From Amoebophrya sp. A120 (Eukaryota > Protista > Dinoflagellata), in assembly GCA_905178155.1 (NCBI GenBank), contig CAJINV010000007.1:590020-654019 (forward strand): a stretch of 64,000 nt of DNA, in the 5' to 3' direction. The position numbers and the translations under genes are program-made. Every line of letters begins with the position of its first letter. The first letter of the stretch is position 1. This document shows, piece after piece, positions 1,848 to 63,459 of this stretch. The notes beneath the pieces are model-generated. The model had not been told where the DNA came from. It saw nothing but the letters and a program-made list of their open reading frames with translations, and made no database searches.

Positions 1848-4800
1848 ATGGTTTCTGTAGTTTCTCTCCCCATGCTCCTCTCGTTTCAGTTTCTCTTACT
1901 CAATTTCGTGGTCGAGACTGCGCAGCGCGCCACCGCGTATCCCGGGTTGACTAACGTTCGGGGCGGCGGCAAGAACGGTCGAACAAATGCGGGGACGAGG
2001 AACAGTGGTGCGTATGGAACATCAACTCGTGGAGGTCAACCCATCTCTGGACAAGAGGTAGAGCCCGCAGATGCAGAGCCTGCTGGCGCGGCGCGTGGAA
2101 CAGCATTTGCAGCAAATTCTGTGCCCCCGCCTGCAGCTCGTCCTGACGACTCGCACACCACGACGGACCCAACGCGGGAGCCAGACGTCGAGCCTTCTTT
2201 TGAAAACCCTTCTTACAAAGCCCCGACCGCGATTGTTTTCGCGGGCGTTTCCGGTGCGGAGGAGACAATTGAAGCGAACTTGCAGAATCTAATTCTTCCC
2301 TACCAACCCGCGCACGTCTTCATCTGTGGGGCAGACAAGATAAGTCCGCAATACAGGAGTTATTCTTCTCCCTCCACCGGCATGACATCAAATGACCATG
2401 AGTATCTTTACCGAAAGTGGAAGCCGTTTCTGAAAGGCGTGAATTGGAGCCCACACCCGCGGAACAACCCGCTGCAGTACACGATAGAGACGAAGGAGGA
2501 AATTCTCGCCGCGTTGAAAATCACGGAGGAAGAATACGAAGAGTACGGCGGGCGGTATTTTCAACAGCAAATCTTCAACCACACGTCCACTTCACCGTAT
2601 TGCCTAGTCCACCCTCTGAACCAAGTTTTGGACTTGATTAGGTGCTGGAAATTGGTGGAGCTGGCGGAATATGAAATGCAAAAGTATCGTACTCGCATAA
2701 ATGCGTTACAAATTTCCTCAGCATTATGAGAAATAAAATTTGTGATGCGGATTTACCTTAAGAAAATGCATGACTCATGACTGCCATTACGATAATTTTG
2801 CAGTTCATACGGAAATTGAGCAGGACATGAAGTACAAAAGAGTGGTGTTCACCCGGTTCGACAACATCTTCTTGCAGAAAGCAGACACGGAGATTCTGAA
2901 AGGGCATTTGGAGGACGAAGGAGGAGGAAAAGCTGAACCAAGCACCGGCTTATCATCATCACATCATCGGATGAGAAAGAACGACTATTATTTCCCAGGT
3001 TCCCGTCCAGCGACAGAGTCTGTGCTGGACATGCACCAGACGACCAGACTTGCTCCAGGAAGCAGTAGTTTCTCGACTTCGACGCATGGTGAGCAACCGG
3101 TTGGAGCAGTACAACAAACAGCACCCCTCGACGTCCCTGGGCAGGGACAACCGCAGTCCACCACCGCGTTTGCACCACCAGTCATAGAAAAAAACATCTG
3201 CTTCGTGCCCTGTCCGGGCCGCGACTGGGGCCACGGCATTTGTGACCACCACGCCATTTGCGACCGCATTGGGGCGGATCATTATGCCGGCGCCCGGATG
3301 TTTTTGCTTACGCGTGGGCTGAATGAAATCTGGCTGCAGAAGAAATTGTTCGATAGTTTCATTCCCGAAGTGGTGCTGAAAATCGCCTTGGATTTCACCG
3401 GAACGGTGATCAAACGATACCGCCACTCCCATGTCCGGACCTGCAACAAGCACCAGTACGAGACGGGGTTGCTGTATCCTGCGAAAAAAGTGTTACAGTT
3501 ACACACTCTGATGGAAGACAAGCAAGACAGACAAGAATGCAGGAATTTCTTGCCAGCCTCTTTGCATTCGCGTTTTCGTCCCTTATGGTCTGCGCATCAC
3601 AGGTTTTCTTTGCTATGTCGAGCAACTTTGTGATGCAAAAATTCCAAAAAATGTGTAATTGTAACACTTTTTTCCTGGGATATGCTGTACGGAAGACGCA
3701 AGCACTGCTACTACAACAAGGCACTCGGTCTGTACCACAAGGCTGGGGTTCACTTCCCGGATAACTTCTCCGCCTTATTTCGACAAGAAGCGTGGAAAAA
3801 ATTGCGGGAGGTTAGAGCAGCAGATGCAGTAGTGGCTGCAGCGACACTTCGACCAGGAGCTCCAGATCATGAGTACAACAATCCTGTGGCCGCCCGACAT
3901 GACGTAAAGAACAGGAAAATCAAGCTGCAGGTGCGGACCGGGAAGGGATCCAGATTGCATGAGACGATCTTGGAAGATGAAGATTTGTTTCGGTACAGTG
4001 ATAACAACGATCAGCTGGCGTTTGAAGGGCTCAAGTTTGAATTGTTGAAGAACGGAGCTGTAGCTGCTGCGCATGAGAACAAACAGTCTGCGCCGGTCGC
4101 AACTACGCATGCGTATGAAGAGCGCAGCTTGAACAAGGTTTTGAAAGAGGTTCTGTTGCAGGGCTCGGGTACGGAGGGTATAAGATCTGTTGTGGAAAGC
4201 CGCAACACAAATTCTCTCTACCAGTACTTCACCGACAACTACAAGTGGTTTTTCAATCCTTTCTATCAGATGCAAATATGTCTGGTAATTCTGGAAAGAA
4301 CTTGGGATGCAAGTCTGACAGTGGTGGGCGCACGACTGCTACACGCAGCCAAGCACGACAATTTTTTGAGCTGCTACGTGTTGCGCAACCCGCATGGCAA
4401 ACTGCGGCTCTGCGCCACAGCCAAGGGCCAGGCCTTTTACGTGTCTATGCATCACAGAGTTCACGCCCGTAATGCCAGAGTGATATTTGCAAAAATGCAT
4501 ACTTTCGCCGTGCACTTCCACAACCCGGCCATGCAGACGATTGTCGGCTTCTTCCGCCACTTTCTGCAGAACGTGGACCCTGGGTACTTCGAGAAATGGC
4601 AGGCCTGGGTGGAGAGAGGACAAGGGGCTTCAGAGGACGGAGAACCAAGTATTGAAAACGAGCAAGAAACTATCGTACGAAAAAAATGTTTCACTGTAAG
4701 GATTTTGCAAGTTTTGCATCACAAGTTTGTTCTACACCAGAGAGAAAATTTGCCATGCGAGATTCCTAAGGGAAAACACAGCTAAAAATCCACTGTCTTG

Positions 4801-7800
4801 CATGTGTACCAAGACAAACACCTCTCAGATACATTTTCTGCATTACAAGTTTACAGTGAAACAGTTTTTTCTTGCGATAGAAACAGACGAAGTCGAGTTG
4901 ATGATCCGAGACAAAAAATTCCAATTGCTAGCCGAGGAACTGGAGCAGCAACTGCTTGCGATGACAACATCAAATGGTAACCACACCGGAGGTTCCGAAT
5001 CTTCCGAGCTGCAAGAAGATCATAGCCAGAGTGTTGCTGATGTTCCTTCTCGACTAGCCCCCGCCCCGCTTCGCTACGACAACCCTCTTGAGATTGAAAA
5101 AGTCTACCACTCAATTCTCCTCCGCTCCCCGTTACTTCGGAAAGCGATGCAGCTATTGAGAGGAAAAATCCCCCCTCCCCATATCGAAAAGGTATGCTTC
5201 CGAAAATTTGCGTTGCTGATTTGAGGTCACAAATCACATTTGTCTTGCAAGAAGACAATGGCAGAAGCTTCCGCCCCATTCTGGAAGCGATTTGTCATGC
5301 TGTTGGGCCTAAAGGGGAGCCGTTTGCAATGCTGAGCACCTAGACCCATACGCCCCTACCTAGCCTGGGGATCTGGCCGCAGTGCCCTCCTGCAATACAA
5401 AGCTGATTCGTGTACGCAAATCCAGCATCACAAACTTCGTTTTGATATGGGGTGGGGGGATTTTTCCTTTTGATAGCAGCAGGAGAAATCACTGTTGGAG
5501 GATTTGAACCGCAACCGAGATTACTTCTTTCGACTATTCCATTCGCTGTTCAGCTCGAGTGTCGTGAAACCGGGGTTGAGCAATGAGGGCGAGAAGTTGT
5601 TGCTGAAAAACCCACTTTTGCAATACTCCTTCAACTACGTAAAGGTGAATGTTAAGCAAGCTGGGAAGACGCAGAGCGAAAGAACCGGTGGCGGTAGTCG
5701 CGAAGATCATGCTCGACGTGGTCCTGTGACCGGCTACGCAACCGGCGAGGTCGACGGGATCTTTTCCGCGCCGGATGCTACAGTGAAGGTCTCACGAGAT
5801 GAATCATCACCTACGGGGGGTGGGATCAGAGAAGAGGACGACCAAAGGAGCCGCGGCGAGCATGAGGACCAACAAGCCGGTGAGGCAAGACCAGAACAAG
5901 ATGAGAAGCCGCCGGAGCTGCAGTTCACGGAGGAAGAACTATTCGACCGGACGTGCTGGCTTCCCTGCCCGACCATCGACTGGGAATTCCTTTGCCACGC
6001 GTTTGGAATTTGCGACAACGACGATAGTGGAGTCGCTGCTTCTGCTTCTGGGGAAGACGTTGAAGATAGCAGCAACCATTCGTCTCAGCAGTCTTCCCAT
6101 AAAAATCAAGATAAACCTCCGCAAGAAGGACCACCACAACTCCCCCCCTCCCCCCTCCTTCGGACGGAGCTGCAAAAGGAATTGATCCAGGCCTACAACA
6201 GCTGGGTCATTCCGGATCACGGGATATCAAATGCAAAAGTGTCTGGGTCTGGAAGGTTGGAACTTGTGATGCTGTCTCTGGATTCAAAAAAAATTTGTAT
6301 TGCATGACCAGCAAGAGGACTCCATTTTGTGCTACGCGGAGAGGGCTTTTCTCATGCGGTAGAAATATCACAAAGCCCTCTAAAAATCTGTGATGCTACG
6401 GCATGCATCACAGACATCATGGCTCATGGAAAATATGCATGACAAATCTCGAAATCTTCCAGACCCAGACATTTTTGCACTTGATACGGGACGAGATCCG
6501 TCGATTTCGAAGTGCACGGACGAGGCTACGGAGAGAGATACGACGCCTTTGCGGACAATTGGATTGCGCAGGAGAGGGACAGGATTGATATGCTGGAGAA
6601 ACCTACTGCATCATCACCTGGACTTACGGATGGTAGCTCGTTTGATTCATCTTCTGCACTACAAGACTCGTCTGCAGCTGCTGCCAGTGACCGCGAAAAT
6701 GATGCAAAAGCTCCCGACAATGCAGAGTCTGCACTAGCGGTTCTTGCCCCCGCGCACCAAGCATCGGCCACTGCTACGACCTACAATTCCGCAAGAAGTA
6801 CTAAATCTGTCGGCAAAGATATGCAAGAAAAAAACTGTGTAAGTGTAAATCTGTGATGCAGAACACGCAGCAGAGTTACACCTGTCATGCCAGACAGCCA
6901 TGCAGTCTTCTTTTCATGTGTGTTTTCCCTTACAAACCACGCATGACAGGTTTTCTCTGTCATGTAGAGCAAATTTGTAATGCTGTCAGCCAAAGATAGT
7001 TACACTAACACAGTTTTTTTTTTGGATAAAAGAAGAGTACGCTTCGCAAGACCGGGTGCGGAATTTAGAAAAAGCGAGATTGGAGAAAGAACAGTTGCTG
7101 AAAACACGCCAGGACAATGTAGGTAGCAGTACAACTAATGATCCGCAGGAAGGCAAAAAACCAGCAAAACTGGTGACCAAATTCACGATCGAGGAGCTCA
7201 TGAAACTTTGGGAGGGGGAGGGCGAGATGTTCTACGGTGGAAGTGCAACTTCTAAGGACGGGAAAAAAAGCAAAAAGGACAACAACAACAGCATACCCGA
7301 CGTTTTTCTCCGCGAGCACAAGAGCTACGAAATTCAAGAACTAGAGGCGAAAAAACGGGCTTTTCGGATCATGCTTTCAGTATATTGCAAGGAAAAATCC
7401 CCCCTCTCCATATCATAACGAAATTTCTGATGCTGGATTTGTGTACACAAATCAGCTTTGTATTGCAGGAAGGCACTGCGGCCAGATCCCCAGGCTAGGT
7501 AGGGGCGTATGGGTCTAGTTGTTCAGCATGGCAAACGGCTCCCCTTTAAGTCCACCAGCATGACAAACCGCTTCCCTAATGGGGCGGAAGCTTCTGCCCT
7601 TGTCGTCTTGCAAGACGCGCGCGATTTGTGACCTCAAATCAGCAAAGCAAATTTTCGGAAGCATAGGTTTTCAATATGGGGAGGGGGGATTTTTCCTTTC
7701 GATACAGTGGGCGAAGTGACAAGGGAAAACAACCAAGAGCCGAACGATCCGCTAGAACAGGTGGAAGCTTCTCAATCTTCTGCAGGCACAAAAAGCACAC

Positions 7801-8747
7801 GTCCAAAGTACGATATCACGAGAAAAAAGTGTATACAGTTACACATTTGTTGGAGTTTCTGCATCACATATTTTCTCTGTGTGGCAGAGAAAACTTGTAA
7901 TGCGAAGATCATAAGGGAAAACAGGAAGGAAACAAAGCTCCGAAGCATTTCCTGCATGAGAAAGGTTGTCTCTGTTGCCAGTCTTGCATGACAATGTGTA
8001 ACTGTAACACTTTTTTCTTGGATATACGAGCGCGCCGAGCAGGTCGCGTGTCAACAGGACCTGGGGAAGCTGTATCTCAAGTACAACTGGGCAATCGACG
8101 AGTATTACCCCGACGCGAAGAATCACTTCTACAAGGTTCCGATGCAAACGATCTACTCGGAGACGCAGCCGGTGACGTGCGTGCACCCAAGTCTCCCGGA
8201 TCTGAAAAACCTCATCGTGCAAAACTCCCCCTGCCGGGCGTATACTTGGAAGAAATCTTGGAAAAAACCGCTCAACCGGGCGTACTTCAAAAAGCAGAGC
8301 TGCAAGTTCGGGAGAGAATTGAAGCTGTTGATGCCGAAAGCAGCTGAAGTGCTGACGAGAAAGAACAACTGGGCGAGAGGGAAAGTGGAAGAAGAAATTC
8401 AGTACAACGATGATGGGGACCACGTCAAAGTAGACCCCACCACGACCACAACCGCCTCTAAAATGTTGAACGCTGGTGTTAGCTACGTGAACGTCAGCCA
8501 GGAACTGCCCTTTCTCAACTTCGAAAACGAACCGACGATCGAGAAATACTGGAAGTCAAGACCAAGAAATTCCCTCGTCCCTCCACACTCACACATTCCC
8601 AGAAATCTAACGACCACGACGGTGTTCGAGTTTCTGAAGTCCACGCTGCTCCCCATCGTCTTTTCCCAAGACGGGAACACGGTGTTTCTCCCCAGACTAG
8701 AGCCGGCGCAGTTAGATACGACGATACCCGGACATCAGGCGTCGTGA
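1848..8747 (+). CDS. Gene 1: ~1658-aa secreted or membrane-anchored protein with a glycosyltransferase-like N-terminal region; join(1848..2669,2815..3474,3688..4670,4885..5153,5481..6224,6492..6819,7034..7382,7710..7813,8030..8747)
   Basis: Removing 8 introners plus one DR each joins the ORF fragments in frame (4977 nt). Hydrophobic N-terminus. Motifs AIVFAG, HVFIC, YKRVVFTRFD and GICDHHAI recall uncharacterised GT-like proteins; function is tentative. Confidence 0.75.
2670..2809. mobile_element. Introner family B
   Basis: TIR tatgaaatgcaaaagtatcgta / tacgataattttgcagttcata; DR cggaa; restores LAEIEQ. Confidence 0.9.
3475..3682. mobile_element. Introner family C
   Basis: TIR core aaaaaagtgttacagttacac; DR tgctg; restores GLLYGR. 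Confidence 0.9.
4671..4879. mobile_element. Introner, C/E-related
   Basis: TIR tatcgtacgaaaaaaatgtttcactgtaa / ttacagtgaaacagttttttcttgcgata; DR gaaac. Confidence 0.9.
5154..5475. mobile_element. Introner family D
   Basis: TIR core ggaaaaatcccccctccccatatc; DR gcagc. Confidence 0.9.
6225..6486. mobile_element. Introner family A
   Basis: TIR tatcaaatgcaaaagtgtctgggtctggaag; DR cggga. Confidence 0.92.
6820..7028. mobile_element. Introner family E
   Basis: TIR tatgcaagaaaaaaactgtgtaagtgtaa; DR aaaga. Confidence 0.9.
7383..7704. mobile_element. Introner family D, opposite orientation to 5154
   Basis: Interior is the reverse complement of 5154-5475; DR cagta/cagtg. Confidence 0.9.
7814..8024. 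mobile_element. Introner family C, opposite orientation to 3475
   Basis: Family C TIR; DR tacga. Confidence 0.9.
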
Positions 8748-9493: not shown

Positions 9494-12400
9494 ATGTCGG
9501 ACATCACTACCGTTCGTCTGTTGGCCCCCTACCCTGCCAAAGGGGATCAACATTTCATCCACGCGGCCGGGGGTTCCTGTACTACAGGAACTACTACAGC
9601 TACTACCCCACAACCACCTGCGGGAGATGAAAACAGAAAGTTCAACAAGGACCACGTGGAAGTTCTGACTTCCTACTCCTTAACCGGCGCTGTGGTCCTC
9701 GACGGTACAAAATCGACTTCCCTCACCGGTTTATCCTCGAGTGCCAACGTCGTTTCTCTGCTGCGGGAGCGTTTAATCGCCGAAAACGCGGTGCCCTTGC
9801 TCGGGAACGAAGAGATTACAGTGAAGAACAACGGTATGGAGAGAAACAAGTTTGTCACAGTCACTAACTTGCAGGTTTTGCAGTACAAATTTTTTCAGCA
9901 TCACAAACTTTCCTTGTGTTGCAGAAACACTAGGGAAATCCCTAATGAAGTTTGGCTGTGATGCATTTTTACGCATGACAAACAATTTTGTATTGCAAGA
10001 ATGCGCATGAGTGATCGTGACGAACTTTTTTTCTTTGATAAACGGATTGGAGGTGGACGTGAAATTGCTGTTACCGGAGGAGTTTTTTCGCGACGATAGT
10101 GCCAAGAAGCTAGGAGGTGAGAAACCTTGTCTTTCGACGTCCCAAGATGAAGATGAAGCCGCGACGACTGGGAATAATACCATCGAAGAGCACGAACCCG
10201 AGATTGAAAAAACCTTGCTCCACAAGTGGCTGGCCTGGCTGGTGCAGAAGGCGGTGGATGAAGATAGTGCGGACAATATCCTGTGTAAAAATGTCCCCAT
10301 GATCCCAGAGTTGTCATGCAGATTTGCGATTACAGGAACATTTGTAATGCGCATCGCCATGAGAGGCATTTCCAATCGTGTTTTTGAATCTGTAATGCTG
10401 TAAACACGGTGAGATAGTGGCTTTCTCATGCGGCTTCCCTTGCTAAGCAGACCTACACTTCTGCAGATGGAAACTTGTCATGCACAACTCCCAAACCTTG
10501 GAGATTTGTGTTGCAGATTTACCAATTTGAGTTTGACTACGGGGTGGGGGCATTTTTCCTCTCAAGAGAGAAAGTGGGAAAATGGACGGATCTGGCGGAA
10601 GTGGAGCTTTTATTTTGCTACCAGTATGGCTGCTCCTTTGACAAAACGAACAAAATCGTGGACAATTTGTCCTTGCTACAGCTACTAAAACTCTTCCCGA
10701 AGTGGTTTCAGATCAGCGAGACAGGACAGGAATTGCGGTTACTGGAAAAACCGGCGGTATTCGTTTAATGGAGTTTTTTCTAATGGTGATCGTTTATTCC
10801 ATGCGCATGTATAAATGCACCTTCCAGCATGCTAGTTTCTAGCACGATCGCAAATTATCCAAATTCTAATTGACGACTCGATTTTCAGGTCGCTCCCACG
10901 GTTCTTTCTACCGCCGCGGAACCCGAGCCGGAACTTGTTTCACCGCATGACAAACCGTCGTCACTCAAGGTCGATTTGGACCAAACTTTGGGCGACAATT
11001 CCTCCGTGCCCGACCTGTCTTCCTCCGTCAGCAGCAACAAGTTCCGCCCGCCGCCCGGTTTGGAAGCCTTGAGTGCAACATCCAGTTTGCCGAAGATCAT
11101 TAACTTGGAGAACGAGAAAACTATTCTTACTGGTTCCAACGATGATGATACAACGAATTTTGTCGCTACAACTCCCCGCGCAGCTGGTCTCCGCCCGACC
11201 TCGCTTTCCCAGGGAACTTCGGGGTTCTTCGGCACTCCGCCGCCGCTATCACGCAGAAAAAAGCAGGCAGGTCACATTTGTAATGCAAAAAATCTGTATT
11301 GCATATCCCAAACAGCATGCTATGTGGCCTCCCATGACAGATTTTTCTGTGTTTTCTTATTTTTGCATTACAAATCTGACCTGCCTGCTTTTTTCTGTGG
11401 GATAGCCGCCCCCTCCGCTGCCGGAGGACGGATTTTCTTCGGATGAGGAGGAGTATCAAATGTAAAAATGTCTGGGTCTGGAAGATTGCCGGGTTTGTCA
11501 TGCACATTTTGCATGACTCCTCAAGTCTGTGATGCATGCCCTAGCATCACAGATTTTTAGAGGGCTTCCTGATGCCTATTCCGCATGACAAATGCTCTTT
11601 CCGTGCTGCAAAATTCGGACTCTCTTTGCTGCTCATGCAATACAGATTTTTTTAGAATCCAAAATCAGCATGACAAGTTGGATTCTTCCAGACCCAGACA
11701 TTTTTACATTTGATAACGAGGAGGAGTTGTCTGCTTCTAAGGGAACGGCATCGAATCTGAATCTGTCGAATAAGCAGACATCCCTCAATGCCGCAGCGGA
11801 ACCCTTTACCATGCCACAAGCGCCACATGCTCAGGCGGGACGTGCAGCGATGTCGATGAAAGAAACCGCATCGCAGGTGGCAGCAGGGTTGAGTTCTTTA
11901 CCGGATTTCCACCACCAGCACCACGTGCACCAATACAACAATCATTTTCCCGGCAGTTCCTTCGCCTGTAACATTGGCACCATGCCCGGATCCTCCTTGC
12001 TGCACTATCCGCAAACGCCCGGGCCGCCGCCCCTAGCGGGACCCCTGCCCCAATTGCCCTACTACCTCAACGCCGGTGCTGGTGCAGCTAACGCGACCAC
12101 CTCCGGAGGAGATCAACAGTCCGCGGCACGAAAGCAAGAGCTACAGATGAAACCTGGTGTAGTCGTGCAGCAGCCAACATCTACCAGTACTACTTCTACC
12201 ACTCACGTGCTCGTCGCCACCGATCCTTCGTTCACCGGGATGGCTTCGACCTCCGCGGCGGCTGCTGGGAATTACTCTCCGTCGCATTTACAGTACCATG
12301 GTCACGTGCATCCGGCGCCGCAAATGCAGCTCTTCGGCGGTTCCATTTTCACGTATAATAACTGCAACCAGGGTTCTTCTGTGGTGAGCAATCCGAATGT

Positions 12401-14160
12401 TCTTGTCGGAAATCCACCGGGGACGAGCGCGTGCGGGAATGGCACAGCCACGACTGTGCAGAACTTCTTTCAGCAAAACTCCAGCTACGTCAGCAAGAAA
12501 TACTATCCGCAGTCTTTACTACCCGAACATTTGCAGCATCAACGACGGGCGAAACAGGAGGCGCGACTGACGCAGGAGGATTTCGCCATGCTGGCCGACA
12601 TCGATTCGGATTCCGATTTATCCACTGCAAATATGTTGTCTTGGACTGGAAGTAGAAATAGAATACAGACGTTTGTCATGCAGGTTCATCTGCATCGCGC
12701 AGAAGCAGAACCTACCAGAAGGTACTACGGTATGCATAGCATCACAGGTTCTACCGCGAGAGCGGTGCGATGCCTGTTCTGCATATAGGGATCCGCCCTC
12801 AGTTGTGTGGCCAAATAATGCGGGAAGCTTAGGCTGCACTCCTCGCATGACAGATTTTAGCGTGACTGGCAGAAAGCATCACAAGTTTTCATCTTTGCTT
12901 TCCAGAGCCAGACAGACTTGCAACCGATACGATTGCAGCTCCGATGCGGACACCTCGGATGAGGAGAGTACTTCTACTACTTCGATGTAGTTTTAAGATT
13001 GTATGTCGGATCGTACAAACGACAACTCGCATGACATTCACAAGCAGAGTTGCATAGTTGTGCATGACAAACTTGAATAATACCAAGATGCCGCCCTGGC
13101 GCTCTGTGAGCTGCGGCACCGGGCCACGGTCAACTGCGACTCGTTTTTGAAGCTGTTTCAGAACCACTGCTATGAATAGCAAACATGTCTCGGTCTGGAA
13201 AGAACTGTTGATGCTCGATTGGGGATTTGATTGCAGCAGGTTGTCTGAGTGCAGCGAAGCATGGTAAGTTTTTGAGACCTCATCCTGACCCTGAGTGCGC
13301 ATGACAAACTGCGTTTTTGCATGACAAAAAGAAGCTGCTGTGCCGTTGCTGGTGATTGTCATGTAGTGCAGATTGTAGAGAAATAGAAAAGCATGAGCAG
13401 CAATACAAGTTGCGTTTTCATCCCAGACCGTTAAACGTGTTTGCAATGCATAACCCCGACCTGAATGTTTTGAGCTACAAGAAGGAGGGGTTGATCCAGC
13501 ATGCGACGAAGTGGAAAGTGGAGGAAAAAGTGACGGTTTATATGCAAGAAAAAAACTGTGTAGGTGAAAGTCTGTGATGCAGAAAATGCAAAACAGTTAC
13601 ACTTGTCATACTGGACATGCATCAGAGGCTTTTTCCGTACGTGTTTTCACGTACTAGCCGGGCATGACAGGCTCTCTCTGTCATGCAGAGCAAACTTGTG
13701 ATGCTCTTCCTCCAAGAACGTTACACTAACACAATTTTTTCCTCTGATAGTTTACATCCCAGAACTACCGGCGGAAGGATATGGCGCTCTCAAACGTTAC
13801 ATCCTCAGCTGTCACATGAATTTGTTATGCAAAACTACCATCAAGATCCACACGAGCAAGCCGCTTCGCATGACAAATTTGCGAAGGGCTAAACAGCGCC
13901 GAAATCTGTGCGGAATTTGTAATGCTAGAGGTGCAACCTTCCCCTTGGACTTTTGCTATTCTTGCATTGCAAATTCGTGTAACAGATGAGAATGTAACGT
14001 TTGAGAATGCCATAAAGGAACCCGCTCCTACATCTGCTTGCCGATACTCTGTATACAACTTGTTTGTTCATCTCTGAAGATCATCTACTTTTCGCTGACC
14101 ACGTTAAGGAGGAGTATTGCTGGGTGTCTTGCGGGCGCGCATGAGAAAGAAGACCTTTGA
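9494..14160 (+). CDS. Gene 2: multi-exon protein with two putative OST-HTH/LOTUS-like domains and long low-complexity linkers
   Basis: 8 introners plus GT-AG introns 10757-10888 and probably 12968-13087 give a continuous frame; the junction near 10565 is uncertain. Segments WTDLAEVELLFCYQYGCSFD...SLLQLLKLFPKWFQI and VNCDSFLKLFQNH.DLNVLSYKKEGLIQ resemble the LOTUS pattern. Confidence 0.55.
9835..10040. mobile_element. Introner, C/E-related
   Basis: TA ends, imperfect TIR, DR aacgg; restores KNNGLEV. Confidence 0.85.
10277..10565. mobile_element. Introner family J with eroded right end
   Basis: Left tatcctgtgtaaaaatgtcccc as at 45920; right ggggtgggggcatttttcctctcaag lacks the terminal TA and a clear DR. 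Confidence 0.65.
10757..10888 (+). other. Canonical GT-AG intron
   Basis: gcg|gtattc...ctaat...ttttcag|gtc joins ORF 10475 to ORF 10976 in frame. Confidence 0.75.
11247..11404. mobile_element. Introner family K with ~45-bp TIR
   Basis: tatcacgcagaaaaaagcaggcaggtcacatttgtaatgcaaaaa with its inverse at the right end; DR gccgc. Confidence 0.9.
11454..11715. mobile_element. Introner family A, reverse orientation
   Basis: Family A TIR; flanks atgaggaggag / acgaggaggag. Confidence 0.9.
12619..12929. mobile_element. Degenerate introner family A
   Basis: Eroded TIR; DR cgatt; restores DSDCSS. Confidence 0.8.
13171..13452. mobile_element. Degenerate introner family A
   Basis: tatgaatagcaaacatgtctcggtctgg ... 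tttgcaatgcata; DR actgc/acccc; element plus 5 nt keeps the frame. Confidence 0.7.
13541..13749. mobile_element. Introner family E
   Basis: Similar to 6820; DR gttta. Confidence 0.9.
13780..14014. mobile_element. Introner family G-related
   Basis: TIR tatggcgctctcaaacgttacat / atgtaacgtttgagaatgccata; DR aagga. Confidence 0.88.
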
Positions 14161-14199
14161 TTAGATGATATGCACGACAAATAAGACGAAACACTTTGA

Positions 14200-14375
14200 G
14201 TGAGGTAACAAATTCCTCCGTTAAGTTACCGGGTAACTTAGCGTCCGGCCGGCCGCCGGACGCTAAGTTACCCGGTTCCCGGGATCCGGGATCCGGAGAA
14301 CGGAGCGGTCCGATCCGCTGGAACGGGCTGGCGGTTGGGAACCGGGTAACTTAACGGAGGAATTTGTTACCTCAC
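14200..14375. mobile_element. Intergenic MITE-like palindromic element, not of introner type
   Basis: 31-bp exact TIR gtgaggtaacaaattcctccgttaagttacc; internal perfect 22-bp hairpin 14228-14276. Confidence 0.8.
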
Positions 14376-19900: not shown

Positions 19901-20222
19901 GGAAAGATTTGCCGCTGATGACAAAGCAAGGGAGAAAACTGCGACACTTGACAGAACATGGACTCCGTGGCTCCTCGATCCTTTCCCTTCGTCTCCTCGA
20001 TCCTATGACAGCTGGACCCCTTCCCCTTCGTCGGACGGGAGCGCATCAAAAAAATGCAGCCGCAGATGGATGTCAGAAGTAGATTACTATTATTTTTTTG
20101 ATTTTTTGTCCTATTTAATAGGAGAAAAAGGAGACGGGCGTGAGCGCTATTTCCTGTGGGAGCGCTGCGAAGTGCGGAAGTGGTACATCGTCAGCGGATA
20201 TGGATACAAGTGGCTGGCCTAA
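16970..20222 (+). CDS. Gene 3: protein with a permuted papain-like NlpC/P60 domain (PPPDE/LRAT-like) and a 1-nt frameshift at ~19202; 5' end uncertain
   Basis: ORFs 16970 and 18248 are joined by removing introner 18000-18231 plus 5 nt. His motif IEHFFVTF at 18692. Deleting one G in aaggg gives YSLKDRNCQHFV and continues into ORF 19050..20222. Confidence 0.6.
18000..18231. mobile_element. Introner, K-like, with diverged DR
   Basis: tatcgcacagaaaaaagctagcacttctcaac / gttgagatgctag...tctgtacgata; DR aagtg/aaacc; frame restored. Confidence 0.75.
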
Positions 20223-51669: not shown

Positions 51670-53470
51670 AGCAAAATTGAAGTTGGAGTTCGAACCACCA
51701 CTGAGTTTTTTTGAATATCAGGCTCGTCAGTGGCGTGAGCCCGAGGCAGAATTTTTTTTACAGCTTGCATTTGAGTATAAGCTAAGTTTAAGTACTTCAT
51801 CTACTTTTAGTGCATGTAGTGAGGTACCACCGTGTGATCCTTGCAAAAATGATCAGACAGAAAGCTAAAAAGCGTACGTGAAGAAAATCCAGAAGAAACG
51901 AGAAGCGAAAACCGTTTGAGAAAATTTCAGTTTATTTTGACGAGGTGGTCGGTGAAACGACAACGAGTTGTATAGTCAAGGAATAACAGAAGAGGGCCCA
52001 AAAGAGCCCTTAATTTCTTGCAAAGAGACGAGAGGGGAGAAAATGATTACGACCTCCTCATGCACAGTTGAGTTACTGCATTTGCTTTTGATCAAGACGT
52101 CATGCCCATGTAGACGGGAAAAACAATGCACGTGAAGAGAGCGTGGCTTTGCTTATTTTCGTGCCCAAAACCGTGTTCCTACGTCCCGTTGGAACGATTC
52201 GATTCTTCTGGAAAGAAACTTTCGGTGTCAACAAGTTTTTTCAAACGTTGTACGTAGCTCCATTCGGCTCGTTCTTAGTCAGCTTGTGACAACTTCGTGA
52301 CAGATAAACAACACAACAAAGCAGGAGCACGAAAAAGCTCGTCGCGGTCGGCCTGTTATGGAGATTTGGATTTAGTATTTTCATCATTTTGTGATTGTGA
52401 TTTCGGTTCATGGGCAGCCCATGCAGCCACGAAGATGCTGGTGGTGGTCCCAAAAATCACAATCGGTGCTCGTCGTACTATACCTGGTCTATGAAGACCC
52501 CTTCGGATTTTTCAGTCTCGTACCCACACAATAAAGACTGTGCAACATCTTCACAAGTTCTCGGTGCAGAGATCGATGTTCTGATTCATCTTCGGTGTGG
52601 CCGTCGTGGTACTTTACTGCGTGGTGCTTTTCAAAAAGAAATCTCTCGGTATGGATGGTGCAGTTTTCAAGCAGTTTCTTGGCTTGATCTTCTCGGTATT
52701 CGTGTCGTGCAGCAATTGAGGATAGAAATAGATACACTTACATGGCAGTGGCACGGTGGTTTTTTTCGTTGCAACTGCTAGTGCCGGATGAGGATCTCAC
52801 TTGTGTTACAAAGCACTTTGTCCTCAAGAGCTATCAATCTACTTATAGTTTTCGTGATTTGCAAGTGCAACAGGTAACGTTGTGCTCTTGTAACCTCAAC
52901 TAGCACAATAAACAAGACGTCGCGTATTTTTCTTTGAAGATGACCCCACATCACCGATGTACTTCAGTATCTTGTTTCTGCAGCAAGGACCTGAGGATTT
53001 TTTTGCCCCAGTTGTACCCACTTTTGCAATATGAGAATGAAGTCGAAAATTTGTTTCCAGCACAAGTAAAAAAGACTTTTTCTGCTTAACCACAATTTTG
53101 ATCTGAAGATGAGAAAATCGTTGGCCTCCCAAAAGATGCAGTCTTTCCACCCCCGGATGCTGCTCTCTTCTGCCGTTTTCCTGTTGGCGCATGATCCACC
53201 TCTCGCAGAGCTTATCCAAGTGTAAAGTTTTTGTCTGTGACGGCAGATTCATTCGCGTTTGCATGGTGTGACTACACTACTAGGGACCACTGGTGGTGCT
53301 TTTGGTTGATAGAACTTGTACAGACGCGCGTAGTATTTACCGATGATGCGGAATCTACTTCATCCCTGGAGGTTGCAGTATACTAGTAGACGACCAGCGA
53401 CAAGCATCGAAAAATCTGCAGTATAGTTTTTCCTTGCATAGACTTTGGGTTGTTTCCGGGAACAAGTTGT

Positions 53471-56400
53471 GTACGGTTCGTGGCGGGAGTGGAGCAGGGG
53501 GAGCGAAAATTTTGGAACCCCTTTGCAGGCTTGTTCGGGGGTGGCGAGAAGAAAGTACTCGCTACATAATCTAACTAGACTTGTTCACTTTAGTTTCACT
53601 TTCCATCTTTGCAACTGATCTGCTTCACAAGTTGTATCTTGTTTTTCATCATTTGTCATTCACATAAACAGGACCCGGCCGAGCACGACGATGACGGCGA
53701 CGATAACGAACGTATCAAAAAAAAAAAAGAATGAGGGCACATCAACGTGCGATGGTGTCAGAAATCCAGCTGAGCGAATACGTGATGCGCCAGCTGTGTT
53801 GTGCTTGAGGTTGGACAAAGTGTAATTTTGTATTATAGTCTTGCGCTTTTCCACCTTTTGGATTTGGAGCTAACGCAGAGGGTGAGCGTCTACATCTACG
53901 GTGAAAAAATGGTATGAGTTAGAGATTTCCATCCACGTCGTTGAGATTTTTCCGTTTCATATGAGTGGAGCAGGAAGACACGGAGAAGGCGGCGCCGAGC
54001 GTCTGGGAGAGTTTTAAAGGCTTGCTTGGCTTGAGCGGCGGAACAGATGATGTATTAAAGCGAGCACTTGTGTTACCGCATGTAGAGTTTTCTTGCTTCT
54101 GGGCCACTTGTCGTGCTTACACCGCATCCATATTGAGAAAATATTGCCGGTGTCGTTTCATGACTCGATCGCGAGTCCCCTCTACAGTTTTCAGTTTTAC
54201 CATGGTATAAATATACACGAATGCAGGGGACGAAGAGTAGTTTGTTAGCCGGTAGTGATTTGTTCGTTCTGCGCATTTGCAGCTTCCGCGTTTACTTCCT
54301 CAGTAGGTGTAGAGCTTTTCCCATTAGGTTTTTTCATACGGAAGCACGATCTTTCCGCGGCCTGTGCTACAGCACACTGTCCCTGAAAAAGGCGACGCTG
54401 CAGCCTTGGAAGAATGGATGGCGAAACGACATGAATAAACAACAAGTTGATCATGTTGATTATAGATGGAGTCGTCGAACAGCTACTTATTCTATTCTTG
54501 TTTCTGTCCATGTCAAAACAGGCGGCAAAAAAGGAGGAGGAACGACAACAAGCAAGGCTAGCTGCCCAGGAGGCAGTTAAGCAAAAAGCCGCTCAAGCAA
54601 AAGCTGCCGCCGCCGCAAAAGCTGAAGAACAAGCTCAGGTAGAAACTGCTGACATCGGCATGCATGTTGACTAGAGAACGAAGTGTAGTTTTCCTTGATA
54701 GGTACTTTTTCTTCACTCCTTCCACATTCCTGCGTTTCGCTCTGAGCGTTGCTCTTTTCGATATTGGCACATTGGCGATGGCAGCCCTGCAAAATGATGG
54801 CTCTCGTCGAACAAGTTGACATGGAGGGTGATGAAATAAAACAAAAAGCTGCACCAGCTGTAGTCTTGCATCTGCTACTTCTCCTGCTATTGGGCCTGTT
54901 GTATTCTTGTTTCTGGCAATATTAAAACAGGAGGCGCAAATAAAGGCCAAGGAAGACGAGGAACAACAAGCGGCCGAGAAACGAAGGCTACTTGCTGAAG
55001 CTGCCGCAGCAGAGGCCCGAAGAAAGGCCGAACAGCAGAGGAAAGACCCAGAAACCGCTGCGAAAAATGCCGCGAAAGCAAAAGCAAAAGCGGGAGCGGC
55101 GCATTACAACGTGCAAAAGTGGTGTGGTCGTGAGGATTCGCATTATTCTACGGCGCATATGTCCTCTGTTGCTATTCAGTCGAGTTTTGGGTTGACTATA
55201 GTACAATGGAAAAGTTCTTGTTGTACTGCACACTAGGCGAGATACTTTGTCCATGAAGCTAAAATAGATTCGTCTTCGAATTATAATGCACCCTGTTCTT
55301 GTTCGCCGTTGTGGACTACAAGGCTCGGCGCGTGAGCAATCCCTTCGATCGTGCGTTGCGGTGCTGTGAAAGCAATTAGATTTTATAGAAGTAGCACTGT
55401 TCTTGTGCTCCACCTCGTCCTTCTTCCTGGAGGAACTTTCTATATTTTCTTCAACAACTCTAGCAAATTTTGATTTCGTGTTGATTGTCCTGAAGCGCTT
55501 CGACGGACAGGAGAAGTCTTGCACAGTATTGCCGCGCTACGTACCTCGGCTACCTCGCACTTGCTAAACTGTTGCTATGCCCTACACGACCACGACACTT
55601 TTGCACTGGATCATGACGGCGCGGTGGAGTCAGCACAAAAAGTGGAAGGCGCGCAAGGAAGCCCGCCAATGTCACCATCCAAGCTCCTACCGAAGGAAAA
55701 AACTACCCCATCTCGAAAATCGTCATCGTCGTACAGGGCTTGCAAGAATATACTACGAGCTTGAAGCTCATGTCGGCCGGGAAGGACAGTCCTCTAGAAA
55801 TACCTACTGACTTCTTGACGATGCCGAACACAACCTGTGCATAACTGAGCCAGTTGTAGTCTGTCGCTAAGTGGGTCTGCTTTGATCCACGAGAAAAATT
55901 AAAGCATAAAATGTCTGGGCGCAACGATCTTCACGAAAGCGAAGCAGTGGAGCTGTGTTGACAGAAATAACTGGAGAATCAAAATAAGTAAGTCCACGCA
56001 CGGTGTCTGTATGAATTCGAAGATGAGGTAGAAGTTTTCTTTTCATACCGTTCGAGAGCCCGCAGCAGTATGCTCTCTCCAGACCTGCACCTGAACGCGC
56101 TGATGGAGAACGCTGCCGGAAAACCGAGTGCCATCACCCCCGTGCCGCCTGCAGGAGGAGGAGGAGGAGGGGCTTTATCTTCTGCCTCGTCGCCGCAGAA
56201 GCCAGTTATTTCTTCTTCATCGTCGCCGTCTCCTTCATTGCAGTCGAAACCAGTTGCAGCCACTTCAGCAGCTTCATCCCCTCCATATCCCCAGTGAAAA
56301 AGCAAACGTACTCACCAGCCTCGAGTAGTGGTCATGCAGGTCTACTGCGTCATCTAGTCTACATCTGCCGGCGCCTTTGTAGCAACGTCCTTATAATTTC

Positions 56401-57588
56401 CCCTGAGAAGAGGAGCATAATTGAATTTGTACCTACTCGTACTAGTCGTCGTATTTTCGTTTTGTCAACAGGATGCTGAGCTACTCGCGGAGGGCTTTGT
56501 GATGTATCAATCTGGTGTCCTCCTCGTCCTCCTCGCTGATCAGCAGCACTCATACTACAGACCAAAAGAACTTGTTATGCGTAGTGAAGAATACCAATAG
56601 AAACTCGCTTCTTTTGATGTAGCAGAAGTCCCACTGGTTTCACTGAGGGGCGGGTACGTTTTTACTGAGGATACTCAGGAGTTGTCGAGAGTCAACAGCG
56701 CTCCAGGACCAAAGCCGAGGAGCACGCCACCCGCATCTCCGAAGAAGGAATCAACACCCGCAGCTTCTGCACCTGGTATCCAGAAAGAGAAATGTGGTTT
56801 CGTGTAACAGCTTCGATCGTGGACTGACACTATGACATGACTAATTCATTTCTCTGCATCCAGTATAGAGATAAAATTTGTCGTTGTCATGCATAGCTAC
56901 CACCGGAGATTGATATCTCAGAGGAAGACAGCCGCCGTTCAAGGCTGGCTGGCATGAGAGACATGACTGGTGTTTATTTGCATTTTCTCTGCATCTTCTT
57001 CTCAGATTTATTGCACAACTAAGACAGTTTTTTTTTTCCTGGATACCGGGCGCATCGCCAACTGGAGGAGTGGCAGCGCAGGCTGAATTGCGGAGGGTTC
57101 AATCTGCTATCACTCCGACTCCGTCAAAAAGACCTCCACCACCTGCGTCTCCGGCTGCAGCTTCAGTGAAGATGAACTTGGGTGCCGCTTTTGAAGAAGC
57201 CGCCGCTGCAGAGAAGAAGGGTTCTCCCTCTGAAGCTAGCACTCGTACGCCCTCTGAAGCTAGCACCTTTCATGATATCCGAATCGAAAATCGCCCCTCG
57301 TCCGCTGAAGTACTTATCAAAAGTAAAAATGTCTGGGTCTGGAAGAATGCAACTTGTGATGCTGTATTTGGATTCCAAAAAAATCTGTATTGCATGAGTA
57401 GCAAACAGAATGCAACTTTTGCTACGCTGAGAAGGCATTTGTCATGCGGAATAGGCATCAAGAAGCCCTCAAAAATCTGTATTGCTAGGGTATGCATCAC
57501 AGACATCATGGCTCATGCAAAACGTGCATGACAAGTGTCAGAATCTTCCAGACCCAGACATTTTTACAGTTGATATGAAGCTGGCTAA
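53471..57588 (+). CDS. Gene 7: low-complexity Ala/Glu/Lys- and Ser/Pro-rich protein with mostly short GT-AG introns plus two introners; exon structure and 5' end uncertain
   Basis: Exon-like blocks at ~53965, 54522, 54931, 56083, 56680 and 57051 with cag| acceptors and |gt donors; stop at 57586-57588. Confidence 0.45.
56777..57045. mobile_element. Degenerate introner, E-like
   Basis: tatccagaaagagaaa / tttttttcctggata; DR cctgg/ccggg. Confidence 0.8.
57315..57575. mobile_element. Introner family A with a 4-nt spacer at the left junction
   Basis: tgaag-tact-[element]-tgaag. Confidence 0.88.
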
Positions 57589-57976
57589 AACAACTCTAAA
57601 ATAGTTGCAATTGGGAAAAAGCAACAGGCATGCTTGTAGATGTCAGTAGACCCTCAATTATAAATATCCTGTGCTCGTAAAAAAGGATTGGGTTGTAAAG
57701 TTCCTCTTGCATCTGCACGCTACTGTTTTTATTTCACTCCGCCGTACGAAATTGAAGATGCACGGACCTTGAGTGTGATGAAACTGCGCTCTTGAACTTT
57801 GCCTCCTTAGACTGACGCACAGCATCCTAGCTCTTAAGTACGTCGGACAGACCTGCTGCTCTATACATGCAAGACAAGTAATTCTTATCCTAAGAAGTAA
57901 GGCCCTTTCGGGCGGGCAGGTCCGCTTGCAAAAAACGTGCGGCCGCTCTTTCCACTTCCCACTCGTGTCGTGCTAA

Positions 57977-59838
57977 AAAAACCCATCCCACGGCTGTTGG
58001 AAGATCATCCACAACTACGTGGGCCGCCGCGGGGCGCTTTTCATTCTCATATCTTCGTCCGCGCCCTCGTCCACAGGGCAAAAGGCAGGAACAGTGAGGA
58101 GGAAGTTCTCGTTTGCAGACGAGTTACCCCAGAAAGCCGTCGAGTTACCCCAGAACGGAAACGTATGGATGTGTCAGAGTTGAAATCGACAAAGTTGAAA
58201 TAATTTGTCATGCATAAAATGGATGCCAGTTGGAACCCAGTTCCCAAGTGGCGCATGACAAATTTCGGTGGTCCCTAAATCCAGTTTGTCATGCTGTTTA
58301 GGCAAAGAAGAGCGATTTTCTCATGCTACTTTAGCAGCTCGAGCTGTGACCCCAAACAGGCTTACAATCGGCCTCAATTGCCTGCTCTGCAACACACGTA
58401 CCTCGGGTCATGCATTTCATGCATTACAAATCATTTCAACTTTGACGATTTCACACCTGACGCTCCCATAAAACGTAGCTCCGTTGACCGAAAAAAATCT
58501 GGCAGCTGCCAAGTTGACCAAGGACGGGCTATTGTGAGGAAAAATCCCCCCTCCCCATATCGAAAGCGAGATTTGTGTTGCTGTATTTGAGTACACAAAT
58601 CACGTCTGTCTTGCTGGAGAGGACTGCAGACCCATATCAAGCCTGAGTAGAGAGGCTTTGACTTAGGCGCTTAGCATGAAAAGCGTCCGTGATGTTGGCT
58701 CAACAGCATGACAAACCGCCTGCACAATGCTGCGTAGCTTGTCGAGTTGCCTTCTTGCAAGACAGACGTGATTTGAGGTCGCAAATCAGCAACACAAATT
58801 TCCGGAAGCATAGTACCTTTTCGATATGGGGAGGGGGGATTTTTCCTCTTAATACGGGCTGCGCGTTATCCTGTGCAAAAGTATCGCACTCGTATCAATG
58901 CCAGACTAGCATCATGACATCAAGTCTGGTTTTTTATGTAATTTAGCATGACAAATTGAATTATTTCATGCTGAGCTAATTTGTAATGCATCTACACGAG
59001 TACGATACTTTTGCAGTTCATACGCGTCGTGCCTATTCAACCAAATCGTTTTCTTCCTCGCACCAAGACACCAGGAACAGCCCTTGCTCGGCCGGGATCC
59101 ACCAAGCCACACGGTGGGTCTCCTCCTTCTGGACGTGGAACAAGCGCAAGCGGTTTGGCTCTCACAAGTCGTGTATGCATTGCAAATATGTCCGGGTGGT
59201 CTGGAAGGTTGGAACTTGTGATGCCTTCTTTGGATTCTAAAAAAATCTGTATTGCGTGACCAGCAAGAGGCGCGTAGTTTGTGCTACGCGGAGAGGGTAG
59301 TTCTCATGCGGAATAGGTAACAGGAAGCCCTCTAAAAATCTGTGATGCTAGGTCATGCATTACAGGCGTCATGGGTCAGGCGAAGTATGCATGACAAGCC
59401 TAGCAATCTTCCAGACCCAGACATATTTGCACTGCATATCGACGGCAGCCGCCGACCGGAAGAATTTCATTCGGGATGTTGAGCAAGAGTATGAATAACG
59501 GCGGAAAAGGGAACAATAAAGGCGGCAAAGGGATGAAAGCTGCGGGAAAAGGGAAAGGCGTGGGGTGGAAGGGCAAGGGAAAAGCTGTCAACAAGGGGAA
59601 GAACGGCAAGGGAAAAGGTGCCAAGGGAATTGGCAAAATGGGAACCGGCAAAATGGGAAACGGCAAGGGAAAGGGAAGCAGCCGCGACGGAAACGGAAAA
59701 GGCAAGGGCGAAGGTGGCAAAGGAAAAAGTGGCAAGGGAAAAGGTGGCAAGGGAAAAGGTGGCAAGGGAAAAGCGGCGTGGAAATCAGCTTCCTTTGCGG
59801 AAGTCGACGCGGAAGGGACGATTAGTGGGCCACTTTGA
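57977..59838 (+). CDS. Gene 8: basic protein ending in a Gly/Lys (GKGKG) repeat domain; start codon not located
   Basis: Removing four introners gives ...DELPQKAVELPQNGNVAPLTEKNLAAAKLTKDGLRVVPIQ... running into ORF 59476..59838. Confidence 0.65.
58164..58470. mobile_element. Introner family H, opposite orientation to 40852
   Basis: Family H TIR; DR aaacg. Confidence 0.9.
58530..58854. mobile_element. Introner family D
   Basis: Family D TIR; DR cgggc. Confidence 0.92.
58867..59022. mobile_element. Introner family B
   Basis: Family B TIR; DR cgcgt. Confidence 0.92.
59174..59438. mobile_element. Introner family A
   Basis: Family A TIR; DR tcgtg/tcgac. Confidence 0.88.
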
Positions 59839-59840
59839 TT

Positions 59841-60102
59841 TATCAAATGCAAAAATGTCTGGGTCTGGAAATTTTCTAGACTTGTCATGCAGGTTTTGCA
59901 TAAGTCTTGATGTCTGTGATGCGTGCCCTAGCATCACAGATTTTTTGAGGCCTTCTTGATGCCTATTCCGCATTACAAATGCCATCTCCGCGTAGCAAAA
60001 ATTGCATTCCCTTTGCTGCTCATGCAATGCAGATTTTTTTGCCATCCAAATGCAGCATCACAAGTTCCAACCTTCCAGACCCAGACATTTTTACATTTGA
60101 TA
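59841..60102. mobile_element. Introner family A inserted at the stop codon / 3' UTR
   Basis: Family A TIR; DR tgatt contains the TGA stop. Confidence 0.92.
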
Positions 60103-60254
60103 TGATTGAGCTTTTTTCTGGTTGATTGTAACTTTGTTTTAATTGTCACATGATTTTTACATTTTCACAAAATTCATTCACTTCCGAAACTACACGCACA
60201 TACTTTCTTACGTCACCGAGATTTTTTACAGCATATGAAAGCATTGTAACTTTT

Positions 60255-60319
60255 GTCTTCTTACGTTCTCAATTACCACTTTACAAGCGTCTTCTTACGT
60301 TCTCAATTACCACTTTACA
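60255..60319. repeat. 31-bp direct duplication, period 34
   Basis: gtcttcttacgttctcaattaccactttaca occurs twice. Confidence 0.8.
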
Positions 60320-62068: not shown

Positions 62069-63459
62069 GTGAAGAAGATGAATAAGGCGAAACAGGCGAA
62101 GGTGCTGCGGGACAGCTGTGCCAGGGCGGCCCCCGCCCGGGGCAGGTCCTCGTTCCCGAAGAAGTTAGCTGGCGCTGCGTTGTTCGCGCACAGCCAGACG
62201 GGGTGTGCACCAGGCGCGCACGGGTTTGAGGTGTTGCTCACCAACCGGAAGAAGGAAAATAAGGTGCACCTCGGCAACATGAAGAAGGAGAATGTTGTAT
62301 CGCGAGGGAAAATCTTCACCCCTCCCCATACTCACAATGCAAATTTGTGATGTTAATTTGTGAGACCACAAATCTAGTCAGCTTTGTCTTGCATATGAGG
62401 CATCAAATAGGAGGCGTGTGGCGTATTGCACAGCCAAGCTGTCATGCGCTTTTGCCTACTGCATCTGCAAAGCTGTCTGTCATGCCTGAGTGCTAAGTAG
62501 ACTTTTGCATACCTAATCAGGCTCAGCAAATTATGCCTGCAAGCGCTTACTGCAATACAGCGCTAATTTGTGTACGCAAATCCAGCTACAGAAATTCCCG
62601 TTTCGATGTGGGGAGGGGGCTTTTTTCACTTTGATATGTTGCGGCAGACGAAAAGAAAGTAGAGTCAATTACTTCATCGCTCTCCACCGCCAAGTGCACC
62701 ACGCTCGCCACCAGCAGCTATTATCATCGGTGCAAACTATGCATTGCAAATATGTCTGGGTCTGGAAGGGTGCAAGTTTGTGTTGCTCTGCTAGAATGTC
62801 CCGCATCTGTCATGTACGATACCCAAAAGCCCCAATTTTCTGTCATTCAAAAACGCAGTTTGTCATGCTGAATAGACAACACCTTGCAACTCAGAAACTT
62901 GTCACGCTGAGCCGTCATTTGTGGCGTCTTCATGATTCGGCGGCCAGCGACGTCACAAGTTTCCAGACCCAGACGTATAATTTGCATTTGATACAAACTA
63001 GGCACTGACTACGATCCCCTGAAGATCACTTTTTGGAAGGGAGCGAAGAAAGGCGATGCCGAAAAGTATGCTGAGTTGACAAAAACAGAACCGGAAAACG
63101 AGGTGAAGGCTGACTTCTGGAAGACCGATCTTGGATTCGCTGCGCTGGACACAACGGTGTCAGCGGACTCTGCCTCGAAGCTGTTTGGGCTCCAGTGCGC
63201 AAATCATGATAAAGAAAACGAATGGATGTCGTGGGCCTACCAGAACGACATGACGGGCTTCAACAATTTCTGGAAGGGCGACAAATATGACGTCCTCGAA
63301 CTGCAGTGGTGGAGGGCCCCGTGCATCACCAATTGTTTTTTTGGACATAACCAAAGGGATCGCAAAGGGGGTGAAGTGAAAATTGTCGGCAAGAACTGCG
63401 TACCGGCGGAATCCTCCGGAACGGGTGCAGCAGATTCATCAGCTTGCATGGGCTGCTGA
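62069..63459 (+). CDS. Gene 9: unknown protein, 5' exon(s) unresolved; join(62069..62297,62642..62737,62999..63459)
   Basis: Removing two introners gives a continuous frame ending ACMGC*. Confidence 0.65.
62298..62636. mobile_element. Introner family D
   Basis: Family D TIR; DR tgttg. Confidence 0.88.
62738..62993. mobile_element. Introner family A
   Basis: Family A TIR; DR caaac. Confidence 0.9.

Follow-up and report, generated by a model that had tools for sequence, protein, structure and literature searches.

How can genes be interrupted by dozens of transposon-like elements that have no fixed GT or AG at their ends and still yield continuous coding sequences? The question is raised by a 64,000-nt stretch of the genome of Amoebophrya sp. 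A120 (contig CAJINV010000007.1, positions 590,020 to 654,019 of the forward strand), here called the window, in whose coordinates all features are given. All host genes in the window lie on the plus strand, and the elements that interrupt them, to which we assign no strand, are introners bounded by terminal inverted repeats (TIRs) and in many cases flanked by a 5-bp direct repeat. An intron of the form N+TAT...ATA+NNNN, cut 1 nt before and 4 nt after the element, appears to fit every junction that we tested. The feature itself is already known; what is added here is a testable splicing rule.

The initial annotation had likened the elements to the introners reported in Amoebophrya by Farhat et al. 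(2021, PMC7789003; this and the other papers cited by PMC or bioRxiv number are cited from the parts of their texts and tables that were available). The relation is in fact one of identity: the window elements are the published introners of the same A120 genome, and their discovery is not itself new. This follows from two observations. An exon of the gene at 39666–48892 is 100% identical to P0001, a protein of A120, as are two further window exons to the A120 proteins P0006 and P0007. In addition, the profile of 92 element ends gives a consensus of TAT, seven variable bases, and an A tract, matching the A120 description of an inverted repeat that starts with TAT, followed by seven variable nucleotides and at least three A, with direct repeats of 3–5 nt (PMC7789003). 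The A120 genome, the TAT-N7-AAA inverted repeat, a direct repeat within 3–5 nt, removal without GT-AG, and repeated families are thus all found together here.

Ungapped and gapped scans, a search for element ends, and inspection together yielded 54 elements in the window, and mapping of deposited proteins added six older ones, for a total of 60. The initial annotation had counted 53, which was too few, but its size range of mostly 140–340 bp stands (54 of 60 elements). It had also described a grammar of 5-bp direct repeat, TA, TIR, interior, TIR, TA, and direct repeat, and this is borne out by the ungapped scan, which found 24 TA...TA pairs with TIRs matching at 11 or more of 14 positions and an exact 5-nt flanking repeat, versus none in each of 10 first-order Markov simulations. 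The ends are TA...TA in 56 and TAT...ATA in 52 of the 60 elements. Two parts of the description need revision. The repeat is not a required part of the grammar, being exact in 37 elements and lacking an exact match in the other 23, in several of which it has almost wholly decayed. Nor are there about 10 families with unrelated interiors: the 54 elements form 17 similarity groups, yet an internal motif, TGTVWTGC, is common to 53 of them.

Removal of each element together with exactly 5 nt, as initially proposed, agrees with both proteins and contigs. When 19 elements, with 5 nt each, and one canonical GT-AG intron (43409–43591, plus strand) are taken out of the plus-strand gene at 39666–48892, the product matches P0001 at 1178 of 1178 residues, and the X1 contigs described below likewise skip element plus 5 nt. 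The precise removal claimed within the motifs NKNI|GD (element 44100–44416, ends TAC...GTA) and EGP|IGS (45920–46209) is supported by the collinearity of both junctions with two proteins, P0002 of A25 and P0005. Removing element plus 5 nt also leaves stop-free frames of 1617, 764, 3144, and 1215 aa, the first of them including the site of the weak-TIR element at 4264–4501. Frame alone cannot separate +5 from +2 or +8, which give similar frames in several genes, and we rejected frame restoration as sole proof of +5.

The position of the cut can be read where the two copies of the repeat, which we interpret as a target-site duplication (TSD), differ from one another. With the offset defined as the number of left TSD bases kept, an offset of 4 fits all 30 mappable junctions among the 32 examined in P0001, P0006, and P0007; an offset of 5 fits 25 and an offset of 3 fits 23. 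Eleven of these junctions are informative, and offset 4 is the only value common to all. The chance of a common offset under uniform cuts is 6 × 10⁻⁵, or 0.04 if the count is restricted to six elements that had been defined ahead of the protein comparison. Two old elements give exactly 4, at 57276–58051 (AT-TT ends) and at 53713–53961 (GT-AG ends), both with four of the five repeat bases decayed. Others set wider bounds: 3 or 4 at 18000–18231 (P0007; TSD decayed at three positions), 3–4 at the old element 55688–56047 (four of five TSD bases decayed), 3–5 at the old element 55105–55612 (ends TAC...ATC), 4–5 at 56286–56673 and at 59174–59438, and 4–6 at the old element 53213–53440 (P0006). In the 931-bp element at 44566–45496, right TSD base 5 is exonic, and the A25 orthologue has the same residue as P0001 there (F), which excludes offset 5. 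The two unmappable junctions, those of 58530–58854 and 58867–59022, flank a 7-nt exon that is seemingly mis-joined in P0006. An attempt to place the cut by the direction of TSD mismatches was abandoned, as these were too few and showed no pattern. Decay of four of the five TSD bases does not stop a copy from being removed as element plus 5 nt, and the cut is anchored on the element ends, not on the repeat. The single cut position, which restores the pre-insertion sequence exactly, is shown indirectly, by deposited proteins that are based on transcripts and by the ends of two contigs.

Contigs were compared over one stretch, 29000–44560, using X1 contigs, which are guessed to be RNA, and X5 contigs, which are DNA-like. 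The initial annotation had suggested as a check that transcripts should drop the element and one direct repeat, and the X1 contigs do so at three joints, skipping 267 nt (262 + 5) at 35602–35863, 224 nt (219 + 5) at 37361–37579, and 280 nt (275 + 5) at 39840–40114. They keep the left base at repeat positions 1 (35602), 2 (39840), 4, and 4, the last two resting on piece ends: one is implied at 40852–41159 (5' end TTT), and the other, with which P0001 agrees, lies at 43176–43321. Another X1 piece ends at the left repeat of 34718–34974 (exact TSD), and a 141-nt gap in a further X1 contig matches the summed length of three small exons (38, 51, and 52 nt). The X5 contigs, with a unique depth of ~45, pass from exon sequence into the elements at both of their ends; their depth over element bins is thousands of times the unique depth, a figure that is not a copy number. 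Because elements are kept in X5 contigs and skipped in X1 contigs, their excision at the level of DNA is unlikely.

What signals mark the ends? The statement that there is no fixed GT or AG is upheld, with 35 different end pairs among the 60 elements and GT-AG in the inferred register in one of 60, the old copy at 53713. The elements do not follow a GT/GC-AG pattern, and only T at +2, with A at +3, is kept. In the inferred register the intron starts N-T-A, and all five GT-AG introns supported by protein or frame start GTA. A pattern scan of metagenome contigs gave 156 related loci (L001–L156; those listed come from JACKZZ01 contigs), which carry the same element families as the window at 65–95% identity. 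The first three bases played no part in the choice of 169 oriented elements from these loci; all of them have the 5' terminal T, and 161 have its mirror A (Fisher p of 0.007, nominal). At both ends, the six old copies with decayed TSDs keep TA(T/C)-N7 followed by a tract rich in A; one of these copies has GAT at the 3' end. Coexistence with ordinary GT-AG splicing was also correctly proposed: the introns at 10757–10888 (frame only) and 43409–43591 (P0001) are real, and three others lie at 53555–53671, 54052–54521, and 54639–54930, all on the plus strand.

Pairing between the two ends seems to leave less of a trace. Among 150 main-family elements, TIR positions 4, 5, and 7 show no covariation; positions 10 and 14 covary, which can be explained by subfamily descent. 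Mismatches that could form G-U pairs are not in excess over A-C mismatches (115:125 and 67:57). In these comparisons the pairing of ends shows no clear sign of selection; a terminal stem is predicted in 39 of 56 elements. For the removed copies at 53713, 47443–47732 (weak TIR, exact TSD), 48119–48303 (3' end ACA, TSD mismatches at positions 2 and 4), and 16500–16875, hardly any terminal stem, or none, is predicted in register. The initial proposal that the machinery reads paired ends rather than splice dinucleotides is therefore not sustained in that form, given the asymmetric 1/4 cut, the invariant +2 T, the removed copies with little or no predicted stem, and the lack of covariation at positions 4, 5, and 7. 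Recognition of end motifs accounts for the data no less well than recognition of a hairpin.

We favor, with a probability of roughly 0.5–0.55, removal from pre-mRNA by a relaxed, U1-less spliceosome of the U2 type that would measure from the end motifs. This reading is preferred because A120 has U2, U4, U5, and U6 and nearly all spliceosomal proteins, with U1 not found (Farhat et al., 2021, PMC7789003), and because U(+2) is the donor base with which U6 A51 pairs in the P complex of yeast (bioRxiv 212811). All 18 of the predominant non-canonical splice-site pairs, nine per strain, have T at +2 (Table S4 of PMC7789003). The donor N-U-A would then mimic G-U-A by retaining U(+2) as the partner of U6 A51. 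The acceptor would be set by distance from UUUU-N7-AUA rather than by AG, perhaps with the branch A lying within AUA. The terminal stem may help bring the ends together and does not look required.

A number of observations weigh against this mechanism or against the register on which it is built. The asymmetry at +2 T is a post hoc finding, with p rising to ~0.11 on correction for 16 positions, and the presence of +2 T in 60 of 60 window elements comes from elements picked in part on TA. A G at +1 makes a GT start in 53 of 169 oriented locus elements and an AG end occurs in 19 of 169, both near flank composition, and we saw no residual selection for G(+1) or AG in the composition of the TSDs. 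There is no invariant 3' adenosine, as ends in ATC, AGA, ACA, and GTA occur. Docking of the acceptor in the yeast P complex involves a G(+1)–G(-1) pair and a pair between the branch A and A(-2) (bioRxiv 212811), and both are absent in the introner register. The terminal stem predicted in 39 of 56 elements would hide the donor, and no lariat or branch point was seen. On the side of the published data, Table S4 of PMC7789003 includes CT-AC and AT-AC, which aligners favor, and the A120 family rows of Gozashti et al. (2025, PMC12130899; 21 of 58 rows) include donors of GC and GA as well as a mixture of mechanisms. As to the register, X1 is RNA only by guess, and the raw RNA runs X9 and X10 yielded just 6 and 0 reads. 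The deposited protein models were built from BLAT/EST2GENOME transcript alignments, and the upper bound of the register, the exclusion of 5, comes from these proteins and not from reads. One of the two exact cases, 53713, is GT-AG, so that aligner bias may have entered there, and P0006 seems to be off by 1 nt at the micro-exon.

The same observations can be set against other modes of removal. A separate, non-spliceosomal system, consisting of an endonuclease and an RtcB-like ligase, of the kind suspected for euglenid nonconventional introns, and acting on the TIR stem or the end motifs, seems to us a rather unlikely alternative. Such a system would cut 1 nt outside the stem or motifs on the 5' side and 4 nt outside on the 3' side and then ligate the exons. 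It would account naturally for the lack of any trace of G(+1) or AG, for the removal of both orientations (20 versus 33 in group 1), and for the folding of the terminal stem in 39 of 56 elements; that U1 was not found in A120 (PMC7789003) and that euglenid introns show an analogous stagger (+4..+6 pairing with -8..-6) and form circles without lariats (PMC11282704) also speak for it. However, the invariant +2 T and the N-T-A start match canonical GTA starts, TIR positions 4, 5, and 7 do not covary and the mismatch ratios show no G-U preference, for some of the removed copies no stem is predicted in register, and the old copy at 53713 is GT-AG in the same register. We consider it doubtful, to the same degree, that a second nuclear pre-mRNA splicing system reads TAT-N7-AAAA at both ends of any copy, whichever way it is oriented, with cuts made 1 nt upstream and 4 nt downstream.

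A spliceosome could instead be guided by the hairpin to cuts that float within the repeat, the fixed register being an artefact of annotation. The splice sites are indeed called variable in the Fig. 3 legend of PMC7789003, annotation-based donors vary (PMC12130899), and 19 of the 30 junctions are uninformative within the repeat. But the 11 informative junctions and the four contig-based bounds all agree with offset 4, and removal as element plus 5 nt persists where four of five TSD bases have decayed, so that we regard floating cuts as improbable. Ciliate internal eliminated sequences are also TA-bounded, and excision from DNA in their manner, with the intron-less contigs derived from rearranged DNA, would explain both the TA ends and the precise restoration of the target. 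This possibility is largely refuted, and we give it very little credence: X5 contigs cross exon–element boundaries, with no empty form among the X5 joints listed in a crowded table; the 1/4 asymmetry would be hard to obtain from a DNA substrate of two-fold symmetry; and the introns are supported by RNA-seq against DNA (PMC7789003). Of these schemes, the relaxed spliceosome measuring from the end motifs remains the one we prefer.

How the elements arrived is a separate matter from how they are removed. In the related loci, where elements were chosen without using the repeat, an exact 5-mer flanks 254 of 350, and no exact repeats were found for k of 4, 6, 7, 9, or 10. For three elements there is a paralogous empty site holding a single copy of the 5-mer (a fourth match, in L023, was dropped, as its alignment ran into the element itself), and the tandem paralogues L009–L011 differ in the presence or absence of one copy. 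Given the exact 5-mers and the paralogous empty sites, the 5-bp repeat is a target-site duplication, and the elements have the TIRs and fixed-length insertion TSD of miniature inverted-repeat transposable elements (MITEs).

Within the window, the duplication is exact at 2670–2809, 3475–3682, 4671–4879, 5154–5475, 6225–6486, 6820–7028, 7814–8024, 9835–10040, 11247–11404, 12619–12929, 13541–13749, and 13780–14014; at 29971–30181, 30283–30505, 31520–31668, and 33585–33830; at 41534–41789, 42159–42404, 42462–42719, 43773–44034, 46401–46556, 47006–47270, and 47796–48017; and at 62298–62636 and 62738–62993. It has a single mismatch at position 2 in 11454–11715, at position 3 in 10277–10567 (3' end AGA) and 56777–57045, and at position 5 in 7383–7704, 41833–42102, and 46738–46948 (silent in the last two); 13171–13452 has mismatches at positions 3 and 4.

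Insertion has occurred in both orientations. The cleanest large group, with no inconsistent edges, shows 20 versus 33 copies in genes, and four small similarity groups are each present in both orientations inside the window; opposed pairs include 5154 and 7383, 45599–45858 and 41534, and 58164–58470 and 40852. In the main family, of ~262 bp, 6225–6486 is one representative, and 11454–11715, 40474–40737, and 59841–60102 lie in reverse orientation, the last at the stop codon of the upstream open reading frame (ORF). Orientation calls for the largest family are noisy, with inconsistency at 173 of 2124 edges, and we put weight on the smaller families. A further main-family copy, at 57315–57575, is a young one nested inside the old element 57276–58051, and on the left its 5-mer repeat is shifted by 4 nt. 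Junctions of the oriented locus elements fall in phase 0, at a codon boundary, in 92 of 169 cases in the inferred register, a figure that could reflect a C/G-A/T-G/C target preference matching codon periodicity.

The internal motif TGTVWTGC occurs 192 times in window interiors, versus 5.7 in simulation, the window figure being post hoc, and it is present in 176 of 176 oriented locus elements. We considered it as a splicing signal and rejected this, because an exact match to it is missing from five of the six old elements that are still removed, as at 16500–16875, removed as element plus 5 nt according to P0007; the sixth has one. Its loss from these copies suggests that it likely serves transposition, not splicing. 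A transposase of the DDE type would mobilize the elements through the TIRs and the repeated internal motif, and the AAYYTGTVWTGC motif would be a putative binding site of an integrase/DDE protein. No transposase family was found in 84 scanned ORFs (76 of 192 long ORFs of the loci and eight of the window), and the element-end pattern had no matches in viral contigs. Two copies of the motif also lie in a likely canonical GT-AG intron at 12968–13087 (plus strand), which joins two ORF blocks (frame only, 867 aa) and could be an introner-derived canonical intron. The 931-bp element at 44566–45496, still removed as element plus 5 nt, contains 13-bp and 12-bp tandem arrays at 44725–44900.

The host genes differ in how heavily they are interrupted. 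A stop-free frame of 1458 aa at 21227–25600 has no element at all; the adjoining genes carry 7–19. P0005 carries Ion_trans and Guanylate_cyc domains, and by its likeness to this protein P0001 is likely an ion-channel/adenylyl-cyclase fusion. Pfam gave nothing above cut-offs in 24 window exons or in P0001 and P0002, a search of representatives with one 49-aa exon gave no matches, and Rfam gave none in the window. The elements 58530–58854 and 58867–59022 are 12 nt apart (58855–58866), leaving the 7-nt exon; P0006 likely joins this exon 1 nt off, with its C-terminus in the wrong frame. A change of frame between the ORFs 18233–19354 and 19032–20222 (19200–19420) suggests an unrecognized intron, and P0007 ends at 19351. 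Between genes, elements appear rare. Intergenic sequence contains a near-perfect palindrome of 164 bp at 14206–14369, whose ends differ from those of the elements and which has no direct repeat, and a stretch of ~40 nt found three times (48970, 50362, and 51547), near a 98-bp tandem repeat (50753–50981), for which there was no Rfam match and no long match in the loci.

A fixed 1/4 cut and an invariant U(+2), independent of both the repeat and the internal motif, allow sharp tests of the removal mechanism. The cut rule can be used to re-annotate roughly 30,000 A120 introners, and it explains how a transposon with a 5-bp TSD can invade coding exons in either orientation without doing harm. A spliceosome that lacks U1 and requires no more than U(+2) and a distance rule would, if real, be a major departure from GU-AG docking. 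A second splicing system, if that were the answer, would be one that undoes a 5-bp duplication and so silences tens of thousands of insertions.

Our searches found no paper that states the fixed cut, the N-T-A donor, or the internal motif, in a coverage that excludes most subscription journals, and the figures of PMC7789003 (Fig. 3 and Figs. S19–S25) may already show part of the register. The window elements resemble the A120 introners of that paper in their direct repeats, their length of ~240 nt, their non-GT-AG removal beside GT-AG introns, and their repeated families. There, however, the direct repeats are given as 3–5 nt, with "no clear splicing signature" and variable sites, whereas here the TSD is exactly 5 nt and there is one cut position; the invariant +2 T, the dispensable direct repeat, and the shared internal motif go beyond its available text. 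The 58 A120 families of Gozashti et al. (PMC12130899) are similar in their class, DNA transposons with TIRs, in their length of ~150–320 bp, and in that single genes can hold tens of such introns. In that study, the 21 of 58 rows available give TSD calls of 2–5 and mixed splice-site mechanisms and state no common register, and its family 38 has an integrase-like ORF, unlike the 84 ORFs scanned here. Farther afield, euglenid nonconventional introns (PMC11282704) share a TIR stem, TSD-like repeats, the absence of GT-AG, and a fixed, staggered distance between end and stem, but their geometry is 3/5, with Y|R junctions and circles, compared with 1/4 in A120. The MITE-derived introns of Fritillaria borealis (PMC11282704) are likewise TIR/TSD elements, and there an adapted U2 spliceosome removes them; they prefer AG-AC and AG-AT ends, whereas in the A120 window the fixed bases are +2 T and +3 A alone, with no constraint on the acceptor dinucleotide.

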